From positions 800,001 to 864,000 of the forward strand of contig CAVPLT010000004.1 of the NCBI GenBank assembly GCA_963706325.1: DNA of 64,000 bases, in the 5' to 3' direction. Of the stretch, positions 1,005 to 40,202 are shown piece after piece. How positions within the stretch are numbered: position 1 is the stretch's first letter; each line of letters begins with the position of its first letter. The notes beneath the pieces were generated by a model. The model made no database searches and had not been told where the DNA came from. It saw only the letters and a list, made by a program, of their open reading frames with translations. A program made the position numbers and the translations under genes. This DNA comes from an uncultured Nitrospiraceae bacterium (GTDB lineage Bacteria > Nitrospirota > Nitrospiria > Nitrospirales > Nitrospiraceae).

Positions 1005-1082
1005 ATTTTAAACCAGCATTTAAACTGCGCCACTAGGCAAAACGCTAGCGATGTTTGTGGCCAAATCTAGGGAGACGCCTAG
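1005..1082 (-). promoter_or_regulatory. Two CTAG-N8-CTAG boxes (1033-1048, 1067-1082) and -10 TAAAAT (1005-1010) for the PAS kinase
   Basis: Both palindromes are perfect; the -10 lies 22 nt from the proximal box. Confidence 0.75.
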
Positions 1083-1253
1083 TCCTGTGAGCGTTAAGGA
1101 AGTTACATTTTGGAAGCCTTGCGTATCCAGGTCCCTGCAATCGCTGCTAAGGCGTGAATGAGGGGGGTTCACATAGGAGCTCCTCGGAACGCGGCTTTTT
1201 ATGGCGAGGATTCATGTGAGATGGTACTCTCTGCCGTTGCGTATATTGTCCAA

Positions 1254-1298
1254 CTAGGGGTTCCCCTAGTCCTTCCTCATCTCGAAGCTATCTATAGT
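1254..1298 (+). promoter_or_regulatory. CTAG-N8-CTAG box (1254-1269) and -10 TATAGT (1293-1298) for the poly-HAMP kinase operon
   Basis: Perfect palindrome at 1254-1269, 23-nt spacer, then TATAGT. Confidence 0.75.
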
Positions 1299-1377
1299 GT
1301 TTCGCGCTAGAAATGTTCGGCAATTCTTTTTCCCGCCCATAGGAAGATCGTGTCCACACCACTCGACGGAGGAATTG

Positions 1378-4300
1378 ATGAAAAGCAAGCCGCGTACGCA
1401 GGCGGGTGAGCGACAGGAGTCCGGCCTTCTCCATGATCATGGGCACGATAAGGCTATCCTAAGCATACTTCAGGCGGTCAAGAAGGGTGACTTTTCGGTG
1501 CGGCTCCCCGCAGAGTGGACGGGAATGGCCGGAAAGATCGCCGATGAAATTAATGGTTTGATCGAGTTGAATGCCCTGTTTGCAGAGGAGTTCAAACGGG
1601 TCAGCCACGCGGTCGGGAAAAAGGGAAAATTATCCGAGCGAGCCTCGGTGCCGGAAGCCAGGGGAGAGTGGAAGACCAACATCGAAGCCGTGAACGGTCT
1701 TATCGATGACTTGGTACGGCCGACTACTGAAATGGCCCGTGTCATTGGCGCCGTGGCCAAGGGGGATTTGACTCAATCCGTGGCGTTGGAAGCGGAAGGC
1801 CATCCGTTACGAGGAGAATTCTTGAGCACAGCTAAAACCGTCAACAGCATGGTGGGTCAGCTCGACGCGTTTGCGGCGGAGGTTACGCGGGTCGCTCGAG
1901 AAGTGGGCACGGAAGGCAAACTGGGTGGACAGGCAGTCGTACCAGGCGTCGCCGGCACGTGGAAGGATCTCACTGACAATGTCAATTCAATGGCTAGCAA
2001 CCTCACGAACCAGGTGCGCAATATTGCGGAGGTCACGATTGCCGTGGCCAACGGCGACCTCTCGAAAAAGATTACGGCCGACGTGCGCGGCGAGATTCTC
2101 CAGCTCAAAGACACGATTAATACCATGGTTGATCAATTGCGCAGCTTTGCGGCGGAGGTGACCCGTGTCGCGCGTGAAGTGGGGACCGACGGCAAGCTTG
2201 GCGGGCAGGCCGTTGTGCCAGGCGTCGCCGGGACCTGGAAAGATCTCACTGACAGCGTGAATTCCATGGCCAGCAATCTGACGAATCAAGTGCGGAACAT
2301 CGCGGATGTGACAGTTGCGGTGGCCAATGGGGACCTTTCGAAAAAAATTACGGTAGACGTACGCGGCGAAATTCTGCAGCTCAAAGATACGATCAACACA
2401 ATGGTTGACCAGCTGCGCAGCTTTGCGGCGGAGGTCACGCGCGTCGCGCGCGAAGTAGGCACGGACGGCAAGCTGGGTGGCCAGGCTCAAGTACGGGACG
2501 TGAGTGGGGTCTGGAAGGATTTGACGGAGAGTGTGAACCTTATGGCAGGCAATCTGACGGCCCAGGTCCGTAACATTGCCGATGTGACGACAGCCGTCGC
2601 CAACGGGGACCTCTCCAAGAAAATCACCGCGGACGTGCGGGGTGAAATTCTTCAGCTTAAGGAAGCCATCAATACAATGGTGGATCAATTACGAGGGTTC
2701 GCGGCGGAAGTCACGCGCGTGGCCCGGGAGGTCGGTACCGAGGGGAAGTTGGGCGGGCAGGCCGTGGTGCCAGGCGTGGCCGGGACCTGGAAAGATCTGA
2801 CGGACAGCGTGAATTCCATGGCCAGCAATCTGACGAACCAAGTGCGCAATATTGCGGAGGTCACGACCGCCGTGGCCAACGGCGACCTCTCGAAAAAGAT
2901 TACGGCCGACGTACGCGGCGAGATTCTCCAGCTCAAAGACACGATCAATACCATGGTGGACCAGCTGCGCAGTTTTGCGGCCGAGGTCACGCGCGTCGCG
3001 CGCGAGGTCGGCACGGATGGGAAGCTCGGCGGTCAAGCACAGGTTCGGGACGTGAGCGGCGTATGGAAAGACCTGACCGATAGCGTGAATTCCATGGCGA
3101 GTAATCTCACGGCGCAGGTCAGAAACATCGCGGAAGTCACCACGGCGGTGGCCAACGGCGACCTCTCGAAAAAGATTACGGCCGACGTACGCGGCGAGAT
3201 TCTCCAGCTCAAAGAGGCCATCAACACGATGGTCGACCAGTTACGCAGCTTCGCGGCGGAAGTCACGCGGGTGGCCCTTGAGGTCGGCACGGAAGGCAAA
3301 CTTGGCGGGCAGGCCCAGGTGCGGGATGTGAGCGGCGTTTGGAAGGATCTGACGGAAAGTGTCAACCTGATGGCCGGTAATCTCACCGACCAAGTGCGCA
3401 ACATCGCCGACGTGACGATCGCCGTGGCGAATGGAGATTTGTCAAAAAAAATCACCGTGGACGTGCGCGGCGAAATTCTCCAGTTGAAGGAAGCCATCAA
3501 CACGATGGTCGATCAGTTACGTAGCTTCGCGGCGGAAGTCACGCGCGTGGCCCGCGAGGTGGGCACCGAAGGCAAACTCGGTGGACAGGCGGCGGTGTCC
3601 GGGGTGGCCGGGACCTGGAAGGACCTCACGGACAGTGTCAATTCCATGGCCAGCAATCTCACCGACCAGGTGAGAAACATTGCCTATGTCACGATTGCCG
3701 TCGCAAACGGGGATCTATCGAAAAAGATCACGGCGGATGTGCGCGGAGAGATCCTTCAGCTCAAGGAAGCCATCAATACGATGGTCGACCAGCTGAGAAG
3801 CTTCGCGGCCGAAGTGACGCGCGTGGCGCGCGAGGTCGGGACAGAGGGCAAAGTTGGGCGGGCAGGCACAGGTGCGAGATGTGAGCGGTGTCTGGAAAGA
3901 CCTGACTGACAGCGTGAATCTCATGGCCGGAAATTTAACGGACCAGGTGCGCAACATTGCGAATGTGACGATTGCCGTGGCGAACGGTGACCTGTCCAAA
4001 AAGATTACGGTAGACGTGCATGGCGAGATTCTCCAGCTCAAAGAAGCCATCAACACGATGGTCGACCAGTTGAGAAGCTTTGCCGCGGAAGTCACACGCG
4101 TGGCGAGGGAAGTCGGCACCGAAGGGAAGTTGGGCGGGCAGGCCATCGTTCCTGGCGTCGCGGGAACTTGGAAGGACTTGACCGACAGCGTGAATAGCAT
4201 GGCGCGGAATCTCACGGCGCAAGTCCGGAACATCGCGGAAGTGACGATTGCGGTGGCCAGCGGCGACCTGTCAAAGAAAATCACCGTCGACGTGCACGGC

Positions 4301-7300
4301 GAGATTCTGCAACTCAAAGATACGACGAATACCATGGTGGACCAGTTGAACGCGTTTGCCGCGGAAGTCACACGCGTGGCGCGGGAAGTCGGCACCGAAG
4401 GGAAGTTGGGCGGGCAGGCCGTGGTGCCGGGGGTGGCGGGGACGTGGAAGGACCTGACCGATAGCGTGAATGCGATGGCAAGCAATCTGACGGCCCAGGT
4501 GCGGAATATCGCGGAAGTGACCATCGCGGTGGCCAGCGGCGACCTGTCGAAGAAAATCACGGTGGACGTGCGCGGCGAAATTCTTCAGCTGAAGGACACG
4601 ACGAATACGATGGTGGACCAGTTGAATGGGTTTGCCGCGGAAGTCACCAGGGTGGCGCGAGAAGTCGGCACCGAAGGGAAGCTGGGTGGGCAGGCCGTGG
4701 TACCGGGGGTGGCGGGAATCTGGAAGGATTTGACCGACAGCGTGAACGCCATGGCGAGTAACCTGACGGTGCAATTGCGGGATATGTCGACCGTCGCCAC
4801 CTCCATCGCGAATGGAGATTTGACGAGACAGATCACGGTGGATGTACGCGGAGAGATTCTGCAAATCAAGGACGTCATCAACCGCATGGTCGCCCAGCTC
4901 AGCGCCTTTGCGAGCGAGGTGACGCGTGTGGCGCGAGAAGTCGGCACCGAAGGCAAGCTCGGTGGTCAGGCGATTGTGCCGGGGGTTCCGGGAACCTGGA
5001 AGGATCTGACCGAGAGCGTGAATCTTCTGGCGGCCAATCTTACGACGCAGGTGCGCGCCATTGCTGAAGTCGCCACGGCCGTCACGCAAGGAGACCTCAC
5101 GAGGTCTATTCAGGTTCAGGCGCGCGGCGAGGTCGCGGAGCTGAAAGACAATATCAACGTCATGATCCGGACATTACAGGCGACGACCGATCAGAACACG
5201 GAGCAGGACTGGCTCAAGACCAACCTCGCGAAATTCACGCGCATGATGCAAGGGCAACGGGACTTGACCACAGTGGGTGATCTGTTGCTGACCGAGCTGG
5301 CGCCGTTGGTCAATGCGCAATACGGAGCGATCTATCAGCGTGATACGGCGGACAAGCCGCTGTTGCGGTTGCTGGCAAGTTATGCGGGTGGGGCAGAGGT
5401 GGTGGCGCCCGAGGAGATGAGGGTCGGGGTCGGGCTCGTCGCGCAATGCGCACGGGAAAAACGACGCATTATGCTGACCAACGTTCCCTCCGACTATATA
5501 CGGATTCGCTCGGGACTGGGACAGGCTCACGCGCGTAACGTGATCGTCTTGCCCGTCCTGTTCGAAGGCCAGACCAAGGCGGTCATCGAACTCGCGACCC
5601 TGTCAGAGTTCACCCCGACCCATGTGGGCTTCCTCGGGCAGTTAACTGAGACGATCGGTGTGGTGGTCAATACGATTGAAGCGACGATGCAGACAGAAGG
5701 CCTGCTGCAACAGTCGCAGAACCTGGCCACCGAGTTACAGGCCCAACAAAAGGAGCTGCAGCAAACCAACGAAGAGCTGGCCAAAAAGGCTCAACAGCTC
5801 GCTGAACAGAATGCAGAAGTGGAAATGAAGAACAGGGAAATCGAGCAGGCCCGGCATGCGTTGGAAGATAAGGCGCGAGAGCTGGCTTTGGCGTCGAAGT
5901 ACAAGTCCGAGTTCCTCGCCAACATGTCTCACGAACTACGGACTCCCCTGAATAGCATCCTCATTCTGGCGCAACAACTGGGGGAGAACCCGGACCGTAA
6001 CCTCAGCTCCAAACAGGTGGAATTTTCCAAAAACATTCACGCGGCGGGCGCCGACCTTCTCAATTTGATCAGCGATATTCTAGATTTGTCGAAGATCGAG
6101 TCCGGCACCGTCACGGTCGAGCCGGAAGAAGTGCTCTTCATGAAAGTCCGCGAAGCCACCGAGCGCAGTTTCCGTCACGTCGCGGAAGCGAGGCAGCTGA
6201 CCTTTCAGATCGACATCGATTCGCAGTTGCCCCGCAGCATGGTGACCGACTTCAAGCGATTGCAGCAGGTGTTGAAGAATCTCCTGTCGAATGCCTTCAA
6301 GTTTACCTCTCATGGCCAAGTGACGTTCCGCGTTCGACGCGCCTTGACAGGATGGAGCCTGGATCACGCGGTCTTGAGTACGGTCCCCACGGTGGTGGCC
6401 TTCGAAGTGAGTGACACCGGAATCGGTATCCCGGTGGAAAAGCAGAAGATTGTCTTCGAGGCTTTTCAACAGGCGGACGCAGGGACGAGCCGGCGGTTCG
6501 GAGGCACGGGGCTTGGGCTGGCGATCAGTCGCGAATTGGCCATGCTGCTGGGCGGCGAAATTCGTCTCGTGAGCGCTCCCGGAGAAGGCAGCACATTTAC
6601 GCTGTATTTGCCTGAGGTATATTTGGGCGCGACGCCGGAACTCATTCCTCCCAAGTTTAAATTGCAGGAACAAGCGCCGTTGCTGGTGCAGCAGGCCCAT
6701 CGCCTGGAAGATATTCCGGATGATCGGGAGAGCATTATTCCCGGCGAGCCGACAGTGCTGATCGTCGAAGATGATCCGCATTATGCCCGTGTGCTTCTAG
6801 GAGCCGTTCGGGAGAAGGGGCTGAAGGGAATTGTGACCGCCCATGGACGGTTGGCCTTGAGCTTGACGAGGGAATATAAGCCTGTCGCCATCACACTGGA
6901 TATCTTCTTGCCGGACATGCTGGGCTGGACGGTTCTCAGTCACCTGAAGCAGGATCCCGAAACTCGACATATCCCGGTCCAGATTCTCACCGTGGAGGAA
7001 GAGCGGTTGCATGGTTTGGGACACGGCGCTTTCGCCTACATGATCAAGCCCACCACGACAGAAGACCTGGGCGAGACGTTCGGACGTCTGGTCAACTTCA
7101 CAAAACCCAGACGTAAGCAATTGTTGCTGGTCGAGGATAATGAGATCGAGAGCCGCAGCCTCTGCGAGTTACTGAGCCACGAAGAGGTGGACATCGTGCC
7201 GAGCAACAACGGGACGGATGCCTGGAATCTGCTCTCCCAACGGCATTTCGACTGCGTCGTCTTGGACCTTCGACTGCCCGATATGTCCGGCTTCCAGATT

Positions 7301-7942
7301 CTCGAACGTATCCGTGAACATGAGGCTCTGCGGAACCTTCCCGTCATCGTCTCGACAGGCAAGGACTTGAGCGAGGAAGAAGAAATCCACCTGAGGGAGC
7401 TGTCCCAAGGGATCGTGCTGAAAGGTGTGCAATCGCCGGAACGGCTGCTGGACGAGGCGACATTGTTCTTGCATTTAGTGGTGGCCCAATTACCGCCTGA
7501 AAAGCAGCGCATGTTGGAACGGGTTCGTCAGAGTGACGATGCGCTGGTCGGGAAGAAGGTGTTGGTGGTGGATGACGACATGCGAAATATTTTTGCCCTG
7601 ACCAGTCTTCTGGAGCGCCATGGGATGGACGTAATCAGTTGCGAAACCGGACGAGAAGCGATTCGAAATGTGGAAGAGGATGGCGACCTAGATATGGTCC
7701 TGATGGATATCATGATGCCCGAAATGGACGGCTATGAAACCATGCGCCAAATCAGGCAGAATCCGCAGCATCGGCTGCTGCCCATTTTGGCGCTGACGGC
7801 GAAGGCCATGAAGGGCGACCGAGAACGCTGCCTCCAAGCCGGCGCGTCGGATTATATCGCGAAACCGGTGAACACCGATGAACTGTTGGCGCTCCTCAGG
7901 ATTTGGCTGTTTGGGCGCAAGAAAGCGATGGGTCGTCCATGA
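1378..7942 (+). CDS. Poly-HAMP / GAF / HisKA / HATPase / 3x receiver hybrid histidine kinase (OsaA/Nik1-like); frameshift at ~3851
   Basis: RBS GGAGGA before ATG 1378; 12 conserved 92-aa repeats ([19 protein letters not shown]); [25 protein letters not shown]; three REC domains. ORFs 1297-3909 and 3854-7942 join if one extra A is removed (ggcaaagttggg). Confidence 0.93.
1873..5170 (+). repeat. Intragenic ~276-bp tandem repeat (12 units) encoding the HAMP array
   Basis: Recurring GAGGTCACGCGCGTCGCGCGCGAAGTCGGCAC-like units with a 92-codon period. Confidence 0.9.
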
Positions 7943-8012: not shown

Positions 8013-10046
8013 ATGACCAATATCCAGGCAAAAATCCTGTTGGTTGATGACGACGCCAGAAGTCTGATGGCAATGGAAACATTGCTGACGGGTCCCGGAA
8101 GGGTCGTCATCACGGCAGATTCTGGCCAGGAGGCTCTGCGCCAAGTGCTTCGTCACGATTTTGCCGTGATTCTGCTCGATGTCCGCATGCCCAGAGTCGA
8201 TGGATTCGAGGCTGCCGAATTAATACGACAGCGGGAGCAGTCGCGTCACACGCCGATTATCTTTTTATCGGCTGTGGACAAGTTGGACGAAGATGTATTC
8301 CGAGGACTGGCGAGCGGGGCAGTGGACTATCTGTTTAAACCGGTCGTTCCCGAAGTACTGCAAAGTAAAGTTTCTGTATTCGTGGACCTGTATCGTATGC
8401 GCGAGCGGGTGAAGATTCAGGCTGTTCGGCAGGGGGAAGAGCGTTTTAGCCTGCTGGTGGACAGCATCAGGGACTATTCAATTCTCCTGCTGAGTCCGGA
8501 AGGGACGATCACCAGCTGGAATCCCGGCGCCCAACTGGTCGAAGGATACGAAGCGTCGGAAGTCATCGGCCTCAACCATGCCGTATTTTTCGCCAGCGAG
8601 GAGATCACACAAGGTAATCCGGCCCTGACGCTGGAAATGGCGGCAGCCGCCGGTCAGCATGAGGACGAAGGTTGGAGAGTGCGCAAGGATGGATCCAGAT
8701 TCTGGGCCAATGTCGTCACGACCGCCATGAAAGACGAGGCCGGAAAAATCAGCGGGTTTGCCCGCGTCGCCCGTGATCTGACGGAGCGGAAGGCCGCGGA
8801 GGAACAGTTACGAAAGATTGCCGTCGAACTGGAACAGCGCGTCAGCGAACGGACGCAAGAATTGCGCGATTCTCACGTGCGGCTTCGTGATCTCGCGACG
8901 GAACTGACTTTGACGGAACAGCGCGAGCGGCGGAGGTTGGCGGGCGACCTGCACGACTATTTAGCGCAATTACTGGTACTCATCCGGATAAAAATCCGCC
9001 AAGCCTCGGCCCATGTCAAAGAAGCGGCTCCGACGTCCCTGCTGATGGAGGCCGATCAGGCCATCATCGACTCGCTCAACTACACGCGATCTTTGGTAGC
9101 CGAATTGGCTCCTCCCGCGCTACAGGAGTTTGGGCTTCTCGAGGGATTCGGATGGCTGGCTGAGCAAATGCAGAATCATGGCCTGACGGTCACGGTTAAA
9201 AAGAACATCCAACGGGTCGAACTGGATGACGACCAGGCGGTGCTCGTGTTTCAATCAACGCGTGAATTGTTATTCAACGTGTTGAAACATGCCGGCACCA
9301 ATCAGGCGGAAGTCACGATTGATAAAAATGACGACGGCCATCTCGTGGTAAGGGTGAAGGATGAGGGTTGTGGTTTCAATCCCGATGAAGTGATCGCACC
9401 GAGCGATGAGCGAAAGCGATTCGGACTATTCAGTGTCCGAGAGCGCACCGAGGCCATGGGAGGCCGACTTGAGGTAACTTCTCTCAGCGACCGGGGCACC
9501 TGCGCGGCATTGATCGTTCCCTATTGGCCTTCGGCGCCACGCCCGGCGATGAAGCCGACGCCGGCCGCACCGCCGGTAGCGCAGGGAGTCGAGTCACGGG
9601 TGAACTTGGAATCTTCCGCGCTCGATGAAAGAGTCCGTTCAACCGGTGATGATCCTGTTCAGGGTAAGGTCCTACGTATACTCCTGGCTGATGACCATGC
9701 GATGGTCCGACAGGGCCTGCGCAGTATTTTGGACGCCTATCGCGACATCACCGTGGTGGGCGAAGCGGCTGATGGAGAGGAGGCAGTGGCAATGGCCGGC
9801 TTGTTGGATCCCGATGTGATCGTCATGGATGTCAATATGGCGAAGTTGGACGGCATCGAAGCGACACGCCGGGTGAAAGCTAAATGGCCTGAGATCCTCG
9901 TCGTCGGGCTCTCAGTATCCACGCGCGCCCAGGTAGAGTCACTGCTGTTAGAGGCAGGGGCCAGCTGCTACGTGTCTAAGGAGTCGGCCGGCGAGCATCT
10001 GTATGGCGCGATTGTCACGGCGGTGCAACAGCACGCCAACCAATGA
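8013..10046 (+). CDS. REC-PAS-HisKA_3-HATPase-REC hybrid kinase (OsaB-like N-terminal receiver, NarL-type C-terminal receiver)
   Basis: KILLVDDD...LLDVRMP; PAS (WNPGAQ..GY, RKDGSRFWA); ERRRLAGDLHDYLAQ; DEGCGF/FGLFSVRER; ILLADDHAMVRQGL. Confidence 0.92.
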   Translation: MTNIQAKILLVDDDARSLMAMETLLTGPGRVVITADSGQEALRQVLRHDFAVILLDVRMPRVDGFEAAELIRQREQSRHTPIIFLSAVDKLDEDVFRGLASGAVDYLFKPVVPEVLQSKVSVFVDLYRMRERVKIQAVRQGEERFSLLVDSIRDYSILLLSPEGTITSWNPGAQLVEGYEASEVIGLNHAVFFASEEITQGNPALTLEMAAAAGQHEDEGWRVRKDGSRFWANVVTTAMKDEAGKISGFARVARDLTERKAAEEQLRKIAVELEQRVSERTQELRDSHVRLRDLATELTLTEQRERRRLAGDLHDYLAQLLVLIRIKIRQASAHVKEAAPTSLLMEADQAIIDSLNYTRSLVAELAPPALQEFGLLEGFGWLAEQMQNHGLTVTVKKNIQRVELDDDQAVLVFQSTRELLFNVLKHAGTNQAEVTIDKNDDGHLVVRVKDEGCGFNPDEVIAPSDERKRFGLFSVRERTEAMGGRLEVTSLSDRGTCAALIVPYWPSAPRPAMKPTPAAPPVAQGVESRVNLESSALDERVRSTGDDPVQGKVLRILLADDHAMVRQGLRSILDAYRDITVVGEAADGEEAVAMAGLLDPDVIVMDVNMAKLDGIEATRRVKAKWPEILVVGLSVSTRAQVESLLLEAGASCYVSKESAGEHLYGAIVTAVQQHANQ

Positions 10047-10950: not shown

Positions 10951-11358
10951 TTACTGTGAATTTGCGCCGGACGCCGCAGGCACTGATTCCATCACCACTT
11001 TGTGGCAGATCTCAGCACATTGTCGACAGTCCCTTGCACAGTCTGCACAAAGCGGGTGATGCGGAGCATGTTCCTCACAGACGCCCGCGCAGACCTCACA
11101 CAGTTCCGCGCACAGTGCGCACATGCGGATGGCGAAGGCGGAAGTCCGTCCCATCCATTGGGCGGCGAGCAAACAAATATCGGCGCAATCGCGGCAGAGC
11201 CTGATGCATCGCGCCATTAAATCCTGTGAGGACTGATGGGACATGCCGACCATGTCATCCCCGCAGGTATTGCAAATTCGCGCGCAAGCCAGACAGGCCT
11301 CAATACATTCATTCACATGCTGCCCGACTGAGCGCTGGATGGCGTCGGTTGACTTCAT
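10951..11358 (-). CDS. Four-helix-bundle copper-storage protein (Csp3/DUF326 family)
   Basis: 19 Cys in CxxxC/CxxC helical spacing; no signal peptide; RBS GGAGG. Confidence 0.88.
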   Translation of the reverse strand: MKSTDAIQRSVGQHVNECIEACLACARICNTCGDDMVGMSHQSSQDLMARCIRLCRDCADICLLAAQWMGRTSAFAIRMCALCAELCEVCAGVCEEHAPHHPLCADCARDCRQCAEICHKVVMESVPAASGANSQ

Positions 11359-11405: not shown

Positions 11406-11479
11406 ACTCTAGCAAACTCCCGGAAGACAGCTACTAGGGAAACCTCTCGGCTTCCGAATCACGCTAGGGAAGAGTCCGG
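11406..11479 (-). promoter_or_regulatory. Degenerate CTAG-N8-CTAG boxes (11434-11449, 11464-11479) and extended -10 TGcTAGAGT for the csp3 unit
   Basis: CTAG-N8-CTCG on the + strand; 22 nt to TAGAGT (11406-11411) on the minus strand. Confidence 0.68.
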
Positions 11480-11943: not shown

Positions 11944-12408
11944 TTAGGTCTGGGCTACCAGGGATACATCTGAATTTTCCGCAAGTTCGATAGAATACTG
12001 ACCATGACCGAGGTAGCTCAAGCGGATCTGCCCATTCCGGCTCAATCGGTCGACTTCCGAAAATACCTGATTCCACGTCAAGGTTGGGCAGGCCCGGACG
12101 AGCATATCAAGGTCACACTTCTGGACGCTGGAGAAAACATCCAATATTGCGGCAGATGCATTGTTTTGAGCACTGAGCTGTGTGGCGCTTCCTGGCGTTG
12201 TTTCACCGTCGGATTTGCATAATTTGCTGAACTGCGCCGAGCAGTCGGGACAATAGGTGTTGGTGAGGTGATATTCGCCGCTGGAAATGTGATGGGTGTG
12301 CAAAAAAACACCAAGCGTACTCCAGGATTCTTTCCGACTAGCCGGCTGCACATGCTCGCGAACCCGATTACAGACACAACATATAGGGATGACGATGGCA
12401 GCGTTCAT
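11944..12408 (-). CDS. Hypothetical protein: CxxC...CxxC zinc-binding N-terminal domain and putative winged-helix C-terminal domain
   Basis: PICCVC...YCPDC; C-terminal LVRACPTLTWNQVFSEVDRLSRNGQIRL; RBS GGAGGGG. Confidence 0.7.
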   Translation of the reverse strand: MNAAIVIPICCVCNRVREHVQPASRKESWSTLGVFLHTHHISSGEYHLTNTYCPDCSAQFSKLCKSDGETTPGSATQLSAQNNASAAILDVFSSVQKCDLDMLVRACPTLTWNQVFSEVDRLSRNGQIRLSYLGHGQYSIELAENSDVSLVAQT

Positions 12409-12456: not shown

Positions 12457-12501
12457 ATCGTATTCGCGTTGGGCCCATCAGCAAACTAGGAGGTCCCCTA
12501 G
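12457..12501 (-). promoter_or_regulatory. CTAG-N8-CTAG box (12486-12501) and -10 TACGAT (12457-12462)
   Basis: Perfect palindrome; 23-nt spacer. Confidence 0.75.
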
Positions 12502-16285: not shown

Positions 16286-16407
16286 AGCCTAATGGAGACA
16301 GCGGAGAATACAGCTAGGGATGGGCCTAGTTCATACTGATTCCGATGACGCGCAGGGTCCGCCTAGGGATTATCCGAGTTGGCCGCGCGCGTCGCTACCG
16401 CTATTTT
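16286..16407. promoter_or_regulatory. Divergent promoter pair, each with a box: 16314-16329 (-10 TAGGCT, minus) and 16363-16378 (-10 TATTTT, plus)
   Basis: CTAGGGATGGGCCTAG with a 22-nt spacer; CTAGGGATTATCCGAG with a 23-nt spacer. Confidence 0.72.
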
Positions 16408-16658: not shown

Positions 16659-17519
16659 ATGCCTCGATCCCTGTGGAAAGGATCCATCAGCTTTGGCCTC
16701 GTGAATATTCCGGTCGTGCTCTATTCGGCCGAGAACCGCAATAGCTTCGATCTCACCCTCTTAGATCGGCGGGATATGCACCCGGTTGGCTTCAAGCGCT
16801 ATAACAAGGAGACCGGGAAAGAAGTCAGTTGGGATCAGATTGTCAAGGGATACGAATATGAGAAGGGTCGGTACGTCGTTCTGACCGACGAAGACTTCCG
16901 GCGCGCCAATGTCGAAGCTACCCAAACCATCGACATTGTAAATTTTGTGCAAGCCGAGGACATTGCGCCCACCGCGTTTGAAATGCCCTATTATCTGGCG
17001 CCCGACAAACGAGGAGAAAAGGGGTATGCGCTCCTGCGCGAAACTTTGAAGAAAACCGGCAAGGCCGCGATCGCGACGGTTGTCATTCGCACGAGACAAT
17101 ATATCGCCGCGCTTCTTCCGTGGGACGACATGATGGTCTTGAACACCCTGCGGTATGCCACCGAGCTTCGTCCTACCAAGGACCTGGAAATCCCGGCCAA
17201 GAGTCTCAAAGCCTCCGGGGTCACTCCGCGCGAGCTGGAGATGGCTGCCAGGCTGGTAGAGGAAATGTCCGAAACCTGGAAGCCCGCTCAGTACAAGGAT
17301 ACGTATCATGACGATTTAATGCGGCTGATCAATAAGCGCATCAAAGCCGGAAAAACGGAAGTGATCACCGCTCCGACAAAAGACCGAGACGATGAAAGCC
17401 CGGGACGCGCGAAGGTCGTCGACCTGATGGCGCTGCTGAAGCGAAGCGTGCAGCAACCCAGAAAAGCAAAACAGCCGCCGTCCAAGAGCGAGCGGGACAG
17501 CAGTCGCAAAACCGCATGA
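16659..17519 (+). CDS. ku: Non-homologous end-joining protein Ku
   Basis: MPRSLWKGSISFGLVNIPV; basic C-terminal tail; VVDLMALLKRS. Confidence 0.97.
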   Translation: MPRSLWKGSISFGLVNIPVVLYSAENRNSFDLTLLDRRDMHPVGFKRYNKETGKEVSWDQIVKGYEYEKGRYVVLTDEDFRRANVEATQTIDIVNFVQAEDIAPTAFEMPYYLAPDKRGEKGYALLRETLKKTGKAAIATVVIRTRQYIAALLPWDDMMVLNTLRYATELRPTKDLEIPAKSLKASGVTPRELEMAARLVEEMSETWKPAQYKDTYHDDLMRLINKRIKAGKTEVITAPTKDRDDESPGRAKVVDLMALLKRSVQQPRKAKQPPSKSERDSSRKTA

Positions 17520-18631
17520 GTCTAGCGATGAAATCCGCCGCCCTTCCCACCAGTCAGGCCGATTCACAACGACTACTTGAGGATTCTATCCGCTCGGCTA
17601 AGGCTGCCGGTTTGCGCTACTGCCTTGACCTCGCGCCGGGGATCGTCCGGAAGGGACCAGGCAAGAAACCCTCCTACATTCGTCCTAACGGCACCGTGGT
17701 CCGGGAGCCCGGATGTCTGAAGAGGATTCGGTCCCTCGTCATTCCACCGGCCTGGACCGACGTCTGGATATGTACAGATCCGCAGGGGCACCTCCAGGCG
17801 ACCGGCCGAGATGCCAGAGGCCGCAAGCAGTATCGGTATCATCCCCGCTGGAATCACATCAGAAATGAGAGCAAATATGATCGCCTGCTCACCTTCGGGC
17901 GGTTGCTGCCCAGAATCCGCAGACGAGTGGCCGCCGACTTAAGACGTTCCGGTTTGCCACGGGACAAAATTTTAGCGACTGTGGTGCGACTGCTTGAGGT
18001 CACGTTAATCCGTATCGGCAATGAGGAGTATGCGCGGACAAACGAATCGTTCGGCTTGACTACGTTGAGGGATCGTCATGTAAAAGTGAGGGGCTCTACC
18101 CTGCGATTTGAATTTCGAGGGAAAAGCGGAATCCGTCACAGCGTGGATATTACCGACCGGCGCTTGGCCCGCATCGTCAAACAAAGTCAGGATCTTCCAG
18201 GATATGAGTTGTTTCAGTACCTGGACGAGGAAGGGGCGCGTCGTTCCATCACCTCCAGTGATGTGAATGGGTACCTGCAGCGGGTGGCGGGTCAAGAGTT
18301 TACGGCGAAGGACTTCCGCACGTGGGCCGGCACGGTGTTAGCCGCGCGGGCGCTCAAGGAATATGAAGACCAATGCGAGTCTGTCACCAAGGCAAAACGA
18401 AACGTCGCCGCGGCGATTGGGGTCGTTGCCCGGCAATTGGGCAATACGAAGGCCGTCTGTCGCAAGTGTTATGTGCATCCTGGAATTGTTCAAGCCTACT
18501 TGGATGGGACATTGCTGGACCGTCTCAGCCGGACCATGGGACGAGAATCATCTCGGTCATTACGGCATCTCCCACCTGAAGAATGGGCCGTTCTTGAATT
18601 CCTGCGTGAGCGCCTTCTGCCATCAGACTAA
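17516..18631 (+). CDS. DNA topoisomerase IB (bacterial/poxvirus type)
   Basis: IPPAWTDVWI, GHLQATGRDARGRKQYRYH, RIGNEEY, FRGKSG, KDFRTW, LGNTKAVCRKCYVHP; catalytic residues intact; ATGA overlap with ku. Confidence 0.95.
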   Translation: MSLAMKSAALPTSQADSQRLLEDSIRSAKAAGLRYCLDLAPGIVRKGPGKKPSYIRPNGTVVREPGCLKRIRSLVIPPAWTDVWICTDPQGHLQATGRDARGRKQYRYHPRWNHIRNESKYDRLLTFGRLLPRIRRRVAADLRRSGLPRDKILATVVRLLEVTLIRIGNEEYARTNESFGLTTLRDRHVKVRGSTLRFEFRGKSGIRHSVDITDRRLARIVKQSQDLPGYELFQYLDEEGARRSITSSDVNGYLQRVAGQEFTAKDFRTWAGTVLAARALKEYEDQCESVTKAKRNVAAAIGVVARQLGNTKAVCRKCYVHPGIVQAYLDGTLLDRLSRTMGRESSRSLRHLPPEEWAVLEFLRERLLPSD

Positions 18632-18638
18632 GGGGGAA

Positions 18639-20564: not shown

Positions 20565-20592
20565 GGCGACAGGCACCGAGTCCGAACAGGGA

Positions 20593-22644: not shown

Positions 22645-22694
22645 GTGGAGTAATTCGTCTCGAGCTGGACAGGGTGCCTAGGGCGAGCCGGCAC

Positions 22695-24084: not shown

Positions 24085-24532
24085 TTCATTGTTTGGCCAC
24101 CCGACAACCCAGATAAAGCATAAATTGGTGGATGGACTCTCGAACTAATAAACTGTTGGCGTAGGACTAACGGAATGCATGTCGCATGTCGGAGCTATGA
24201 CCGGACGTCGGGTGGTCCGCGAGCGATGCCCGACCTAATACTTCAACAGCCTCGTGGTGCGTACAAAAGCCTGGATTGGATTAGGCCTCTTGGTCGAATC
24301 TCACGCATGGCGCGGCTATTCCTTGACTGAATGTATTTGCCTGCTAGCCTTATGTCTAAGGTGTCCTCGCAAGCGGCACTGAGTCCCCCACATCAAACTT
24401 ATTAGTTAGGCGCGGAACCTACCAAACAACGAAAGCGATCCCTTCTTCTGACGGATGGGCGGATGAGCTGGCATCTTGTATACGTAATGTCGTGCCAAGA
24501 ACCGTGAACCCTATTGTACTGAGGGAGGAATT

Positions 24533-26076: not shown

Positions 26077-26121
26077 CTAGGGTACCCACTAGCTCCAACC
26101 TGCAGTATTGACCGGTACAGT
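26077..26121 (+). promoter_or_regulatory. CTAG-N8-CTAG box (26077-26092) and -10 TACAGT (26116-26121)
   Basis: GCTAGGGTACCCACTAGC; 23-nt spacer. Confidence 0.7.
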
Positions 26122-26414: not shown

Positions 26415-27053
26415 ATGATGACCGCGCGGTCCCCGACGATCACTATTCTGTTAGTGGTCCTGCTGACGGCAGGGTTTCTAGCAGCGCGTACCGCCACGGC
26501 AGAATGGTATGTGGCCGGACAGTTCGGCGCGAACTTTGCGGATCAACTCAGCGATATTCGAGGGACCGGCAGTTTGAGCGGATTTCGCGCGCCAGATTTC
26601 GATCTGCAGAACTCCTTCGTCTATGGAGGCAAGCTCGGCATGTTTCCAGGCAACGGATGGTTCGGTCTGGAACTTGATGTGTTCAACAGCACCCCCCATA
26701 TTAAGAATCTCGACAATGTTCCAGGTATTCACATGCGGGTGACAAACGTGGGAGTGAATTTGCTGGCACGGTATCCTGGCGTGACATTCCAACCGTATAT
26801 TGGGATCGGGGCCGGTGCGGCCATTGCGCGAATCGGGGACTCCGCAACTACCCAGGCCAATACTGACGTCGCATCCGCCTTCAACCTCTTGGTGGGCATC
26901 AGAGCCTTCGTCACGCCGTATGTGGCGGTGTTCACCGAATATAAATATAGCCAGTCGACGTTAGGATTCGACCAGGCATTCGGGCCGACCGGTGGATTCA
27001 ATGGACATTATGATGCGCACATTTTGGTTACGGGTCTCTCCTATCATTTTTGA
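26415..27053 (+). CDS. Outer-membrane beta-barrel protein (OmpA/OmpW-like, probably 8 strands)
   Basis: Signal peptide ATA-EWYVAGQFG; PYIGIGAG; C-terminal GLSYHF. Confidence 0.88.
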   Translation: MMTARSPTITILLVVLLTAGFLAARTATAEWYVAGQFGANFADQLSDIRGTGSLSGFRAPDFDLQNSFVYGGKLGMFPGNGWFGLELDVFNSTPHIKNLDNVPGIHMRVTNVGVNLLARYPGVTFQPYIGIGAGAAIARIGDSATTQANTDVASAFNLLVGIRAFVTPYVAVFTEYKYSQSTLGFDQAFGPTGGFNGHYDAHILVTGLSYHF

Positions 27054-27066
27054 AGGCCGGACAGAC

Positions 27067-27789
27067 TTGCGAGAGCTCACCGTCGCGGTCCTCCTTACTC
27101 TGACCTTGCTCTGTGACTGCTTGCGCGCAAAGCGCGCATCAATCCGGTCGAGATGTGCTCGATCAGATTCTGCCCGATAATTTGGAACAAGAAATCGACC
27201 AGACCGTGTCGTTCGCTGACTTGAAGGCCGATCCCGCCGCCTATCAAGGCAAGACCGTTATGGTCAGCGGCATCGTGCTCAAAAGTAAACGGGTGAAGGA
27301 CCGCACCGAAATCGAGGTGCTACAAATCCCCACCGGCTCCGGCGCAATGCCGAGGAAGGATCGCGCGAGGTCGCAAGGCCGGTTCCTTGCCGTCAAGAGT
27401 GGAGAATTTCTCGATCCGGCTGTGGTCGATGCCGGCACACCGGTGACGGTGGTTGGCGAAGTCGGGTCTCCTGTCCACTCGAAGTATGGACGACGGCGAA
27501 TACATCTACCCGGTTCTGGAAATCAAGCACCTGGTGGACTGGGAGGAAGTCGATCCGCGCGGAGGCTCCGTTCCGTACGCCTATCCATATGGAGGTTCCA
27601 TGTACGCCTATCCTTACTCCTACTGGGGACCTTACGGGGGTATGGGAGGTTGGTATGGCGGCTATCCAGGCTATGGCGGCTATGGGTATGGTTATCCATA
27701 CTACGGACCCTTCTTTGGATTCGGGAGCGGATCGTCCGTTCCCAGCGGGCCGCCACCGGCAGTCCGCGCCGCCGCAATTTAAAAAATGA
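27067..27789 (+). CDS. Slp-family outer-membrane lipoprotein with a Gly/Tyr-rich tail; several frameshifts (~27111, ~27470, ~27770)
   Basis: Lipobox VTAC; DPAAYQGKTVMVSG, GRFLA..GEFLDPA, VTVVGEV, YIYPVLEI. Confidence 0.78.
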
Positions 27790-27824
27790 TGTGACAGGCG
27801 CGGCCTCGGCGGCGAAGGAGCCAC

Positions 27825-30428
27825 ATGGGTCTTCGGCAGTATTGGAAAAAACGCGACTTCAAGCAAACACCCGAACCGCGAGGGAAAGAGGTTCCGCCTC
27901 AAGGCCGGTTGCAGTTCGTCATTCAAAAACATGCCGCAAGCCGTCTCCATTATGACTTTCGGCTCGAATTGGATGGCACGTTGAAAAGCTGGGCCGTCCC
28001 CAAGGGGCCCAGCTTGGATCCTGCACAGAAACGGCTGGCCGTGCACGTTGAAGATCATCCGCTTGACTACGCAAGCTTTGAGGGGATCATTCCTGCCAAA
28101 CAATACGGCGGCGGAACGGTGCTGCTCTGGGACCGGGGTTACTGGGAAGCCATTGGCGATGCAGGATCGAGTTACCGTCGCGGACGACTCAAGTTCGTGC
28201 TGCACGGGGAAAAACTGCGCGGTATCTGGAATCTGGTTCGCATGGGTGGTCGACAGGAAGCGGGCAAGGAAAATTGGCTCCTGATTAAGGAAAAGGATGA
28301 GGAAGCGCGCAGTGGGAAAAAAAGCGATGTAACACAGAGCCTTCCGGCGAGCGTCGCAACTGGAAAGAGCATCGAGCAAATTGCCACCGGAAAACATGCG
28401 GTGTGGCAATCTAATAGACCCTCGGATAAACAAGGCCGGGGTGCCAAGGCGCGGCGCCCCGTTAAGAGTGTTTCCGCTCCAGGCGCTGTCAAGGCCGCCC
28501 AAGAAAAATGGGTTGTCCCGCAATTGGCGACGTTGGTCACCGCCTCTCCCGAAGGAGAAGAATGGGTGCACGAACTCAAGTATGACGGGTATCGCATCTT
28601 GTGCCGGATCCAAGGCGGCAGGGCCACATTGCTGACTCGAAATGGAAACGATTGGACCGCCAAGCTGCCCCATATCGCCCGCGCGGCCGCAGACCTTGCG
28701 GTGAAAACAGCCTGGCTTGACGGCGAAGTCGTCGCCTTACTGCCGGACGGGCGCGTCAGCTTCCAAACCCTGCAGAATGCATTCGATACGCATTCCGACA
28801 GCAATTTGGTTTATTTCGTATTTGACCTTCTGTATCTCGACGGCTACGACTTACGGCCCGCCTTGCTGATTGAGCGTAAACGTCTTTTATCGGCCCTGTT
28901 TCAAGACAGCTCCCCGACGGATCTCATTCACTATAGCGATCACATCACCGGCAAGGGGGACGTCGCCTTCACCGAAGCCTGCCGAAGCGGCATGGAGGGG
29001 TTGATTGCCAAACGCGCCGATGCGTCCTATGTGGGGGGGCGAAATCGCAACTGGGTCAAGGTGAAGTGCGGGCGGCGGCAGGAGTTCGTGATCGGGGGAT
29101 TTACCGATCCCTCCGGCTCACGTAGCGGCTTTGGGGCATTGCTGCTCGGGGTCTATGATACGCATGGCCAGCTGCGATTTTCAGGACGCACGGGAACCGG
29201 CTTCTCCCAGCGTTCCTTGAAGGAACTTCACAGCCGACTCAAGAAGCTGGAACAAGATACGTCTCCGTTTTTAAACCCGCCCAGAGAGAGAGGTCTGCAT
29301 TGGGTGAAGCCGACACTGGTAGCCGAGGTCGCTTTCGCTGAATGGACGAATGAAGACCAGTTGAGGCAAGCGTCGTTTCAAGGCCTTCGCGAGGACAAAG
29401 ATCCCCGGAAGGTGATCCACGAGCGACCAGCGCCCGAGGTTTCGCCTGAGATGACGGACAAGCCTTCTCGCTCTCGATCGTGGCGTCGGAAAGAAAAATC
29501 AAAAGGACGACCGTCTTCGAGGAGCGATTCCCAGGAGAGCGCGAATGTCGTCAGCGGTGTGACCCTCAGCCATCCGGACCGAGTGTTGTTTCCCGAGCAA
29601 AGCGTCACCAAACTCGCGCTGGCGCGATATTACGAATCTATCAGCGAATGGATCATCCCGCACGTGGAAGATCGACCATTGACGCTTGTTCGCTGCCCGG
29701 AGGGATACAACAAGGAGTGTTTTTATCAGAAACATGCGAACGATCGCATACCCGAGGCGGTCGGACGCGTCGACATTCCCGAAGATGACGGGACCGCTTC
29801 CTATATGGTGGCGGATTCGCCGGCTGCGCTGGTGGGGCTGGTTCAAATGGGCGTGTTGGAGCTGCATACGTGGGGGTCGAAGCGGGATAAACTCGAACGT
29901 CCGGACCGCATGATCCTCGATCTCGACCCAGATCCCGCGGTCGAGTGGTCTGCCGTCATTGAAGGCGCGCAACTGCTGCGCACCCTGCTGAATGAATTGA
30001 ACCTTGCCTCGTTCGTCAAGACGACGGGCGGGAAGGGCCTTCATATCGTGGTGCCGCTGCAACGCGTCCATACCTGGGACGAGGTGAAGACGTTCTCGAA
30101 AGCGCTTGCCGATCATCTTGTCCATACGATCCCGGAACGTTTCCTCGCAAATATGTCGAAGCACAAGCGCAAGGGGAAAATCTATATCGATTATTTACGC
30201 AACGCGCGGGGCGCGACGGCGGTGGCCGCCTATTCCACCCGGGCTAGGCAAGGCGCGCCGATATCCGTGCCGTTAGCCTGGGAGGAACTGTCGGTCGACC
30301 TGCGATCCGACCATTTCACCATGACCAATTTGCCGGAACGGCTCGGACAGCTGCGTAAAGATCCTTGGAAGGATTATTTTACGGCGAAACAGCGCATCAG
30401 CCGCAAGATGCTCATGAGTTTGGTGTAA
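27825..30428 (+). CDS. ligD: DNA ligase D (phosphoesterase-ligase-polymerase)
   Basis: FVIQKHAASRLHYDFRLE, ELKYDGYR, EGLIAKR, WVKVKC, LSHPDRVLFP, KTTGGKGLH, IDYLRN. Confidence 0.97.
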   Translation: MGLRQYWKKRDFKQTPEPRGKEVPPQGRLQFVIQKHAASRLHYDFRLELDGTLKSWAVPKGPSLDPAQKRLAVHVEDHPLDYASFEGIIPAKQYGGGTVLLWDRGYWEAIGDAGSSYRRGRLKFVLHGEKLRGIWNLVRMGGRQEAGKENWLLIKEKDEEARSGKKSDVTQSLPASVATGKSIEQIATGKHAVWQSNRPSDKQGRGAKARRPVKSVSAPGAVKAAQEKWVVPQLATLVTASPEGEEWVHELKYDGYRILCRIQGGRATLLTRNGNDWTAKLPHIARAAADLAVKTAWLDGEVVALLPDGRVSFQTLQNAFDTHSDSNLVYFVFDLLYLDGYDLRPALLIERKRLLSALFQDSSPTDLIHYSDHITGKGDVAFTEACRSGMEGLIAKRADASYVGGRNRNWVKVKCGRRQEFVIGGFTDPSGSRSGFGALLLGVYDTHGQLRFSGRTGTGFSQRSLKELHSRLKKLEQDTSPFLNPPRERGLHWVKPTLVAEVAFAEWTNEDQLRQASFQGLREDKDPRKVIHERPAPEVSPEMTDKPSRSRSWRRKEKSKGRPSSRSDSQESANVVSGVTLSHPDRVLFPEQSVTKLALARYYESISEWIIPHVEDRPLTLVRCPEGYNKECFYQKHANDRIPEAVGRVDIPEDDGTASYMVADSPAALVGLVQMGVLELHTWGSKRDKLERPDRMILDLDPDPAVEWSAVIEGAQLLRTLLNELNLASFVKTTGGKGLHIVVPLQRVHTWDEVKTFSKALADHLVHTIPERFLANMSKHKRKGKIYIDYLRNARGATAVAAYSTRARQGAPISVPLAWEELSVDLRSDHFTMTNLPERLGQLRKDPWKDYFTAKQRISRKMLMSLV

Positions 30429-30466: not shown

Positions 30467-30511
30467 CTGGGGGGAGTGCTAGTAGAGTCAATTCGGCGGT
30501 CCTGGTATCAG
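30467..30511 (+). promoter_or_regulatory. CTGG-N8-CTAG box and imperfect -10 (TGgTATCAG)
   Basis: One-mismatch box at 30467-30482; 23-nt spacer. Confidence 0.55.
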
Positions 30512-37018: not shown

Positions 37019-37063
37019 AGGATAAGGCGATCGCCCATTTTCCTGAACTGGGCAAAGCCCTAG
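37019..37063 (-). promoter_or_regulatory. Box (37048-37063) and -10 TATCCT (37019-37024)
   Basis: CTAGGGCTTTGCCCAG on the minus strand; 23-nt spacer. Confidence 0.68.
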
Positions 37064-37152: not shown

Positions 37153-37581
37153 TTATTCCAAATCTTTTGATGGAAGCGTTGCCAAAAGCGGAAACATGTC
37201 ACGTTCCTCCGTCAAAAAATGTGCGCGAACCGTCTGCATCATGTCTTCAAAAAATTCGTCCAACGCTTGGTCGTCGTCGGTCTCTGCTTGCTGCAACTCG
37301 GTCATCATGGCCTTGATTTCGTCATGCTCCAGCAGCGCTTCCTGTACGAAGTGACGACCCGGTTCGCTTGCGTGTTGAATGACACTGTAGAGCATCTCTT
37401 CCTCTGCCTTGAAATGCGCGGCGAGCTGATCCAGGATTTGATCCACAATAGGTTTTCGCGAGTCGGCTTCCGCGCTTAAATACAACTGAAAGAGAACCAG
37501 AATATGTCGATGCTGCTCCCGGACGGTTTTCTGCACGTCGTCGGCTCCTATGGCCGTGCCATAGTCTTTTTCGTGGATCAT
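37153..37581 (-). CDS. Hemerythrin-domain (HHE) protein
   Basis: EQHRHI, AHFKAEEEMLY, EHDEIK, AHFLTEERDMF. Confidence 0.88.
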   Translation of the reverse strand: MIHEKDYGTAIGADDVQKTVREQHRHILVLFQLYLSAEADSRKPIVDQILDQLAAHFKAEEEMLYSVIQHASEPGRHFVQEALLEHDEIKAMMTELQQAETDDDQALDEFFEDMMQTVRAHFLTEERDMFPLLATLPSKDLE

Positions 37582-37628: not shown

Positions 37629-37672
37629 AATTTAGCAGTTTAAGACTGGGCGCTAACTGGGCAAGACCCTAA
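37629..37672 (-). promoter_or_regulatory. Degenerate box (37657-37672) and extended -10 TGcTAAATT
   Basis: TTAGGGTCTTGCCCAG on the minus strand; 22-nt spacer. Confidence 0.62.
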
Positions 37673-37800: not shown

Positions 37801-37806
37801 TGGGAC

Positions 37807-39285: not shown

Positions 39286-39402
39286 GAGCCTCCTTGAGAT
39301 CCGACCTGAATGGATTCCGCTAGTGACGCCTTGGGGCGTCTGTCCAGACTCTGAGCAAAACCGAAATCACTCGCGATATTTATCAATGCATGCTCCAGAG
39401 CC

Positions 39403-39717
39403 TTATGGCTGCTGGATTTGCAGATTGTTGTTCACGGTTCTCACGCCCTTGACATCACGGGCCACTTCCGCGGCTCGGCTCTTCTGATCAGCAGACTTCA
39501 CCACACCGTTGAGTGTGACGACCCCGCGTTCGGTATCGACGTCGATGCGGGAGAAGTTCGACAAGCGATCGGAGGTTAATTTGGACTGCACTGAAGCCGT
39601 GATGGTCGCATCATCAATGTTTTGCCCCGCGGTCTTTCCGGTCGTAGACTGACAACCCACGATCGAGAGACATGAGACGGCAAGAGCAATGCAAGCGAAT
39701 CGATTGATCATAGTCAT
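39403..39717 (-). CDS. BON-domain lipoprotein (OsmY-like)
   Basis: IVGCQSTTG; DDATITASVQSKL; IDVDTERGVVTLNGVV; VRTVNNNL. Confidence 0.92.
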   Translation of the reverse strand: MTMINRFACIALAVSCLSIVGCQSTTGKTAGQNIDDATITASVQSKLTSDRLSNFSRIDVDTERGVVTLNGVVKSADQKSRAAEVARDVKGVRTVNNNLQIQQP

Positions 39718-39745
39718 TCTCCTGCGAGGGATGAAAGCATATCGG

Positions 39746-40072
39746 CTATCCGCGTCGGGAAACGGCTTCAGCGGCGCCCTTTTCAACTGTCTGCGTGGTT
39801 TCATCCACGAACTCCCGGGCGGCTCGTCCTGCATTGCGAATGGCCTGCTTTCCACCCTCGACATACTCTTGCCCTCGCTCAACAGCCGTATCCCAGGCGG
39901 CGCGTCCTTGCTCCGTGGCCTCGTCCAATTCGTCCTTTGCTCTCGATGCGTAGTCGCGGAGAGACGTGCGAAGCTCCGATCCCGATTGAGGCGCTACTAG
40001 CAATGCGATGCCGGCACCAATAAATGCGCCCGCCAAAAACGCTGACCAATTAGAAGAATCTTGGGTTTGCAT
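39746..40072 (-). CDS. YtxH-domain general stress protein
   Basis: FLAGAFIGAGIALLVAPQSGSELR. Confidence 0.92.
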   Translation of the reverse strand: MQTQDSSNWSAFLAGAFIGAGIALLVAPQSGSELRTSLRDYASRAKDELDEATEQGRAAWDTAVERGQEYVEGGKQAIRNAGRAAREFVDETTQTVEKGAAEAVSRRG

Positions 40073-40158
40073 GCTCGTCCTCCTTTATCCCTGTGGACAT
40101 GTGCGATGGGTGATTGTGCTGTGTTGGCCTACCGGCTCGACAGCCGTTGTGTACCCAC

Positions 40159-40202
40159 AGTCTAGCAACATGTCGGAAATCTCTAACTAGGCAAGGCCCT
40201 AG
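40159..40202 (-). promoter_or_regulatory. CTAG-N8-CTAG box (40187-40202) and extended -10 TGcTAGACT
   Basis: ACTAGGCAAGGCCCTAGT; 22-nt spacer. Confidence 0.75.

Follow-up and report, generated by a model that had tools for sequence, protein, structure and literature searches.

A CTAG-N8-CTAG box at a fixed distance from predicted -10 elements marks a candidate general-stress regulon in Nitrospira

We have analyzed a 64,000-nucleotide stretch from the genome of an uncultured Nitrospiraceae bacterium (GenBank assembly GCA_963706325.1, contig CAVPLT010000004.1, positions 800,001 to 864,000), called here the window. In our coordinates it is G000:C4:800001-864000, the prefix G000:C4 standing for this genome (4.24 Mb in 8 contigs, 96% complete) and its contig 4. 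Stress genes of the window are preceded by a 16-bp palindrome, CTAG-N8-CTAG (the box), which about 60 predicted promoters of the genome carry. The box, its spacing, its orientation, its conservation, the identity of the genes downstream and its co-occurrence with a pair of response regulators and a clade of sensor kinases are direct observations. Comparison of the sequences suggests that the box is probably the operator of a response-regulator dimer of the NarL/FixJ family with the helix K-T-[IV]-E-F-H. The most likely reader is the pair C4:790072 and C4:790944, encoded without an adjoining kinase 10 kb to the left of the window, which would activate a general-stress set of genes.

An earlier sequence-only reading of the window had listed seven perfect boxes, one-mismatch copies at 11434, 16363, 30467 and 37048, and ten hexamers of the form TANNNT downstream, and all of them are there (Table 1). 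The seven perfect boxes compare with 0.14 expected, and none of 100 shuffles reached seven. With up to one mismatch, 13 matches were found against 7.96 expected, a number reached by 6 of 100 shuffles and not significant alone; they include two further copies at 24344 and 58674. The ten hexamers are found at 22 nt (five) or 23 nt (five) from the box. The housekeeping half of the window had been described as free of boxes. It does contain the one-mismatch copy at 58674, inside a gene and with no -10, but no promoter was detected there by the matrix described below.

An enrichment over background is apparent over the whole genome. CTAG-N8-CTAG occurs 49 times, against 2-11 times for each of the other spacers (0-7 and 9-24), and 41 of the 49 copies are intergenic according to gene calls made within this analysis. 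CTAG itself is depleted, as had been supposed, but only mildly so (3959 seen, 5211 expected). TANNNT follows the box at offset 23 in 17 of 98 flanks, at 22 in 5 and at 24 in 3, the mean at other offsets being 0.94; outside the window, offset 23 is used in 14 of 84 flanks. Among near-matches the hexamer stands at 23 nt in 13/114 intergenic flanks and in 0/42 genic ones. Intergenic units of box plus TANNNT point at a gene start in 39 of 47 cases, against 53% for the background. A scoring matrix trained on 39 promoters, all outside the window, recovered all ten promoters of the window and detected none in its housekeeping half. At a score of 11 it retrieved 64 units genome-wide (1-11 at control offsets), 18 of which fall in a 72-kb stress island overlapping the window, where 1.1 would be expected. 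The spacing of 22-23 nt first described holds for the ten window sites, but over the genome it is 22-24 nt with a mode of 23. Contigs of three soil metatranscriptome runs (5-6% of words) gave scattered pieces and no start sites, and were not used as evidence. Other spacer-specific intergenic palindromes of this genome rival the CTAG box in number, namely CGTAC-N7-GTACG (25), GTATC-N6-GATAC (21), GTACC-N5-GGTAC (19) and CTGTC-N6-GACAG (11).

Oriented by the -10, the consensus reads CTAGGG, four mostly pyrimidine bases, (C/T)CCTAG and then TT. These two bases, present in 18 and 15 of the 30 promoters with 23-nt spacing, are placed where a -35 hexamer begins for a 17-nt spacer, and the remaining -35 is unconserved. 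The box abuts what is predicted to be a weak -35, and the predicted -10 is of the sigma-70 type. If the -10 spans -12 to -7, the 23 nt would put the box at -51 to -36, with its centre at -43.5 and not near -42 as first thought. Two of the control patterns need comment. CTAGG-N5-CCTAG (up to 2 mismatches) also peaks at offset 23 (13 vs 4.9), likely by catching the proximal half of true boxes; stricter controls with 6-bp half-sites show no offset peak. The matches of CTAGG-N7-CCTAG are mostly GTTCGA/GTTCAA loops, which we take to be typical of tRNA T-arms. A reversed-pattern control was unfair, as it contains GATC.

We have examined how far the box is conserved. The Ku protein of the window is 67-98% identical to those of mostly Nitrospira/Nitrospiraceae records, and at most 64% identical to others, which marks the genome as one of the Nitrospira type. 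In 18 Nitrospira-like Ku loci (281 kb; two, titled Nitrosospira and Legionella, were included by their 80-83% Ku identity) there were 38 perfect boxes, where spacers 4-7 and 9-12 gave 0-1, and in 62 other Ku loci (866 kb) only 1. The box is found at 14 of the 18 orthologous Ku promoters. At the superoxide dismutase (SOD) promoter adjoining the regulator pair it is present in 16 of 17 loci, with a -10 at 23-24 nt in 14 of those. Orthologous promoters keep the box while their flanks diverge, and the interiors of the boxes are free. A strict version, CTAGG-N6-CCTAG, is present in 38 of the 46 family genomes, and in 1-2 copies in 5 of 22 sister-family genomes and in 5 of 182 genomes from elsewhere in the phylum. 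Four other Ku-bearing genomes have 0-1 strict boxes. A wide spread in Acidobacteria was not found, with 0-4 strict boxes per genome among 201 genomes of that phylum and 0-3 among 201 genomes of the order of G278, whose locus is titled Candidatus Angelobacter. Outside Nitrospiraceae the box looks local and not genome-wide.

Which protein reads the box is suggested by its neighbours. LuxR-type helix-turn-helix (HTH) genes number 25 in this genome. Seven share a T/A-[VI]-x-F-H-K helix, preceded by K in four (K-helix) and by R in three (R-helix). A box lies within 2.5 kb of 4/4 K-helix genes, 0/3 R-helix genes and 4/18 of the other LuxR-HTH genes. The island pair, two convergent genes each combining PF00072 and PF00196, has the acceptor Asp in both proteins (IVDIALP and LLDISMP), and the helices are KTIEFH and KAVEFH. 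Metagenomes were also searched for the exact box plus TT plus -10, giving at least 123 stretches, of which 80 with flanks were examined; most are not Nitrospira by protein identity. Among these 80 there are 8 distinct LuxR-HTH genes, 7 of them with KT[VI]EFH, against 4 of 25 in the genome (Fisher p 0.0005), and in control loci (866 kb) 0 of 3. The nearest Atlas clusters of one such metagenome protein, with few labelled members, are mostly Acidobacteriota. The products encoded behind the metagenome boxes (61 of 76 scanned) include receiver-only proteins, CRP-family regulators, a HisKA_3 kinase, an AI-2E transporter, beta-barrels and Ysc84 proteins. Across other loci 60 of 72 K-helix genes have a box nearby, against 0 of the 16 R-helix paralogues, the 72 being not independent because they are mostly orthologues, and including loci of this genome chosen for their boxes. 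In G203, G194, G147 and G036 boxes stand directly upstream of K-helix regulators. G036 is a small genome of another family with one such regulator, preceded by two boxes with -10 hexamers (G036:C18:4823-8458), possibly by transfer or bin contamination. The lysine of the helix aligns with K180 of RcsB, the sole residue that hydrogen-bonds to bases (PMC7913699).

The R-helix paralogues may have a site of their own. A CTCGTA-N4-TACGAG-like variant stands beside 10 of 16 R-helix genes (2 of 16 for control spacers), a circular count since the motif was drawn from the same 16 loci, and it is not enriched genome-wide (17 vs 19 and 22). We take it as a lead only. In Nitrospira, in the order of G278 and on a Rhizobium plasmid the variant site often follows the R-helix gene, in several cases ahead of a receiver-like gene. 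The seven regulator matches from the Acidobacteria searches have no box even when one mismatch is allowed, and the ones whose helix was read are of the R-helix type.

The kinases point in the same direction. The genome encodes 20 HisKA_3 kinases, and seven with no adjacent regulator form one clade with a support of 100/100. The window encodes two of these, a third is the last gene of an RsbR-RsbS-RsbT operon, and there are four others. Four of the seven, or the operons containing them, stand behind a box with a -10. The stressosome operon (G000:C7:8618-16492), behind a perfect box, consists of RsbR-RsbS-RsbT, a kinase-like gene, a hybrid HisKA kinase and the orphan HisKA_3 kinase. Of 24 genus genomes, 16 have an orthologue of C4:790072 and carry 6-22 strict boxes; the eight genomes lacking it have 1, 2, 2, 3, 4, 6, 6 and 15 (median 3.5; p 0.0012). 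In 37 genomes of other genera the medians are 4.5 for the 10 with the orthologue and 1 for the 27 without it. The kinase clade is present in all 26 genomes with the regulator (16 of the genus, 10 of other genera). It occurs without the regulator in 2 of 8 genus genomes (G022 and G019, incomplete or fragmented assemblies) and 1 of 27 others (G110, which beside its kinases encodes a protein matching the second regulator at 52%). The number of clade kinases tracks the number of boxes, with a Spearman coefficient of 0.81 in the 24 genus genomes and 0.57 in the 37 others.

Put together, the clade kinases would phosphorylate the C4:790072/C4:790944 pair, and the regulator dimer would bind just upstream of the weak -35, centred at about -43.5, and recruit sigma-70-type polymerase as NarL of Escherichia coli does at yeaR. 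Boxes ahead of kinase genes would close a feedback loop. The signal may be a broad stress, such as drying, osmotic or oxidative stress, or starvation.

Several observations weigh against this proposal. In this genome both island regulators lack a clear box-plus-TANNNT unit of their own, and of 105 high-scoring intergenic boxes 49 have TANNNT at 22-24 nt (both strands counted), so that about half go without. No orthologue of either island regulator is found in G022 (15 boxes, 9 kinases, 650 contigs), G179 (9 boxes, no clade kinase, 99% complete, 210 contigs) or G019 (6 boxes, 84% complete), while G221, G147 and G153 have the C4:790072 orthologue but only 1-2 strict boxes. The co-occurrence is partly linkage, because the regulator, some kinases and many targets share one island; Ku is also absent in 5 of 5 module-less genomes. 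Related genomes are not independent, and linkage and kinship inflate all of the co-occurrence tests. In addition, an RpoS-like sigma is present in the genome, and because of it the suggestion that the box regulon stands in place of RpoS was not borne out.

Another K-helix paralogue, or all four overlapping with the island pair as one of several inputs, might instead be the main reader, which we regard as rather unlikely. One candidate is the core paralogue C7:696210, which could read the box because it has its own kinase (membrane-linked or adjacent), is matched throughout the genus, and has just downstream a box that is conserved in the genus, including genomes that lack the island. The box near all four K-helix genes and the 6-15 boxes of G179, G022 and G019 fit this possibility. 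On the other hand, genomes that have the core paralogues alone usually carry 0-4 strict boxes, and the number of boxes follows the orphan clade of kinases, which have no adjacent regulator. The box following C7:696210 is itself followed by a 69-aa open reading frame (ORF) without family (L287:2281-2487, G000:C7). The sequence-only reading had proposed one NarL-family activator fed by HisKA_3 kinases; family and kinases have gained comparative support, and "one" is too simple because the helix is common to four paralogues and two box-rich genomes are without the island pair.

We consider it improbable that the box serves a repressor, or that its reader comes from another family such as CRP/FNR or the sigma-54 activators. 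Polymerase can be blocked from a site in contact with the -35, the genome has five CRP-family genes, and an NtrC-type gene lies at the left edge of the island. But the box keeps a fixed place entirely on the upstream side of a poor -35, as suits activation, none of the CRP genes is in the island, the promoters have a sigma-70-type -10, and the metagenome search, made by motif only, found KT[VI]EFH regulators beside the box.

It appears more improbable still that an alternative sigma reads these promoters, the proximal CCTAG-TT being an extended -35 and the palindrome secondary. The RpoS-like sigma (329 bits vs a cut-off of 394) and a second RpoD-like, group-2 sigma are candidates, conservation is somewhat higher in the proximal half than in the distal one, and the targets resemble those of RpoS and SigB. 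The distal half is, however, strongly kept too (C 30, A 29, G 29 and G 28 of 30, at sites chosen for closeness to the palindrome), 6-bp half-sites show a -10 signal only with the 4-nt spacer (10/29/5 vs 0/0/0 and 2/2/0), and the middle of the -10 shows no RpoS-like preference. Such a sigma would be compatible with working together with an activator. Finally, although some insertion sequences target CTAG, the reading as chance, composition artefact or mobile-element scars is refuted by the spacer-specific excess, the fixed -10 spacing, conservation amid diverged flanks, the free interiors and the lack of any Rfam match, which also disposes of an Rfam RNA.

Table 1. Boxes, predicted -10 hexamers and associated genes in the window.
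Feature	Position	Strand	-10 hexamer (distance)	Genes faced and remarks
PAS-HisKA_3 part of orphan hybrid kinase	3-1004	-		HATPase and REC left of window; likely start near 899; clade member
Perfect box	1033-1048	-	TAAAAT 1005-1010 (22 nt)	PAS-HisKA_3 hybrid kinase crossing left window edge
Perfect box	1067-1082			No TANNNT at 22-24 nt; 34 nt from 1033 box, likely its auxiliary second site
Perfect box	1254-1269	+	TATAGT 1293-1298 (23 nt)	Poly-HAMP hybrid kinase and REC-PAS-HisKA_3 kinase genes
Soluble poly-HAMP-GAF-HisKA-3xREC hybrid kinase	1297-7942	+		Two frames, 1297-3909 and 3854-7942; likely start near 1378
REC-PAS-HisKA_3-HATPase-REC orphan kinase	8013-10046	+		Clade member
One-mismatch box	11434-11449	-	TAGAGT 11406-11411 (22 nt)	Csp-like copper-storage gene 10951-11358 (DUF326)
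Two-mismatch box, weak second copy	11464-11479			Beside 11434 box; no TANNNT at 22-24 nt
Perfect box	12486-12501	-	TACGAT 12457-12462 (23 nt)	154-aa ORF 11944-12408
Perfect box	16314-16329	-	TAGGCT 16286-16291 (22 nt)	DAO-Rieske oxidoreductase and HAD hydrolase genes
One-mismatch box	16363-16378	+	TATTTT 16402-16407 (23 nt)	Genes 16659-23432: Ku, topoisomerase IB, TreZ, glycogen debranching enzyme, DUF72
Perfect box	26077-26092	+	TACAGT 26116-26121 (23 nt)	Genes 26415-30428: outer-membrane beta-barrel, Slp lipoprotein, LigD
One-mismatch copy	30467-30482			Low matrix score (9.4), no TANNNT at 22-24 nt; doubtful as a real box
One-mismatch box	37048-37063	-	TATCCT 37019-37024 (23 nt)	Gene run 36944 down to 31410: Holin-X, BrkB-like, AI-2E transporter, TPP enzyme
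Two-mismatch box	37657-37672	-	TAAATT 37629-37634 (22 nt)	Hemerythrin 37153-37581
Perfect box	40187-40202	-	TAGACT 40159-40164 (22 nt)	YtxH, BON and DUF4403 genes (40072 down to 37807)

The genes behind the boxes were assigned by family scans, which agree with the non-homologous end joining (NHEJ), trehalose/glycogen, copper-storage, hemerythrin, BON/YtxH and membrane-stress genes named in the sequence-only reading. The left 40 kb of the window holds signalling kinases, Ku, LigD, topoisomerase IB, TreZ, the glycogen debranching enzyme, the Csp-like protein, hemerythrin, BON and YtxH, and the right 24 kb ligA, trp genes, a class II tRNA synthetase and a release factor. Boxes do cluster in the window, but the island is not confined to it: it continues leftward for some 30 kb, and the greater part of the regulon is found in other regions of the genome. 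The left part of the island has a glgC-like gene, PRC-barrel, SOD, CBS, ferritin/Dps, CsbD and DUF1328 genes and the two convergent REC-LuxR genes. Outside the island, where 100 of 189 nearby proteins were scanned, the targets include a second hemerythrin, BON-YflT, DoxX-UPF0047-Usp, YceI, a zinc dehydrogenase, an MFS transporter, ABM, RsbR/S/T, two glycoside-hydrolase genes of the glycogen/trehalose type and many proteins without family. Such a make-up is typical of general stress regulons and resembles those of RpoS and SigB.

Some features of the window deserve separate mention. The 154-aa ORF matches nothing in Pfam or NCBIfam and has a good ribosome-binding site. The glycogen debranching gene (20512-22644) and trpE (49114-50611) are each in two pieces; these, and the frame split of the poly-HAMP kinase near 3850, may be assembly indels.

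Nitrospira are important nitrifiers in soils and waterworks, and are hard to handle genetically. In a search of literature listings that had RegPrecise and most subscription journals outside its reach, we found no published Nitrospira motif or regulon like this one and no mapped regulon of this kind for Nitrospira; the main text of PMC3333781 contains no 'CTAG'. The box provides a list of about 60 promoters with named candidate regulators and kinases, and a marker to separate lineages with and without this stress programme. A wider picture can be offered tentatively. The general stress response of Nitrospira may end in a DNA-binding pair, perhaps a heterodimer, and not in a released sigma. Between 3 and 12 orphan HisKA_3 kinases, one behind a stressosome and one behind a poly-HAMP kinase, might converge on it to drive some 60 promoters, the kinases' own included. 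The module might be gained and lost as a unit, and the K/R switch in the helix might separate paralogous regulons. This would suggest a further design of bacterial general stress response, and a non-SigB output for the stressosome.

The mechanism proposed is of the known NarL/FixJ/RcsB kind; the operator, the regulon and the kinase fan-in did not turn up in that literature search. Some known systems were discarded. The lux/las-box lead of the sequence-only reading fails, because no autoinducer-binding LuxR was found: the domain PF03472 had 0 matches in this 96% complete genome, with a positive control in E. coli. A CRP/FNR/NtcA site was rejected, the consensus being unlike their half-sites and none of the five CRP genes lying in the island. 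NarX belongs to the HisKA_3-type sensor family, as do the kinases here. At yeaR of E. coli, NarL activates transcription via the alpha C-terminal domain from one 16-bp site that has its centre at -43.5 and adjoins the -35 on the upstream side (PMC10853779). The arrangement predicted here has the same single site, with equal length, centre and place relative to the -35, but the DNA sequence and the helix are others, the targets are stress genes and not nitrate respiration, and the NarL score is 110 bits against a cut-off of 250. Staphylococcal NreC differs in controlling nitrate and nitrite reduction, and its site and helix are presumably similar to the box and the K-helix. NreC is a NarL-family activator binding a GC-rich palindrome (PMC8139620).

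The likeness to FixJ is closer in the DNA. Its site at Sinorhizobium meliloti fixK is TAAGTAATTTCCCTTA (PMC4999443). FixJ and the candidate readers here both have an HTH of the NarL/FixJ family, whose operators are 16-bp inverted repeats of 7-2-7 or 6-4-6 form, and the FixJ site and the box are both of the 6-4-6 form. The right half CCCTTA is close to CCCTAG of the box, the FixJ helix RTVEVH (PDB 1x3u), an R helix, resembles KT[IV]EFH, and the variant of the R-helix paralogues echoes the left half. The differences are that the island regulators are not FixJ orthologues (69 and 73 bits vs a cut-off of 255), that the half-site is a different one, that there would be dozens of direct targets here against mainly fixK, and that the kinases here are HisKA_3 hybrids. 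A CRP-family gene stands behind a box in two foreign contigs; in this genome none of the five is the first gene at any of the 47 promoters listed.

The RcsB box is given as TN(G/A)GAN4TC(T/C)NA (PMC7913699). The inner 14 bp of our box, TAGGG-N4-CCCTA, have the same layout, the aligned lysine corresponds to K180, and both regulons would be large stress regulons, that of RcsB including osmB and osmC. Membership of the RcsB regulon was nevertheless rejected, with G and not A at the fifth base of each half and no orthologue (88 bits vs a cut-off of 235), and the sensor relay is not of the Rcs type, as far as the island shows.

The stressosome and SigB form the general stress system of Bacillus. 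In the alphaproteobacterial PhyR to EcfG pathway many kinases converge on one regulator, as they would here. The NHEJ, trehalose, Dps, CsbD and YflT targets are a further likeness to the PhyR and SigB systems, and so are the RsbR/S/T genes, present here and preceded by a box. No SigB/F/G-type sigma was over the cut-off among the 14 sigma-70-family genes of the genome. The difference from both systems is that the output here would be a DNA-binding NarL-type dimer and not a released sigma.

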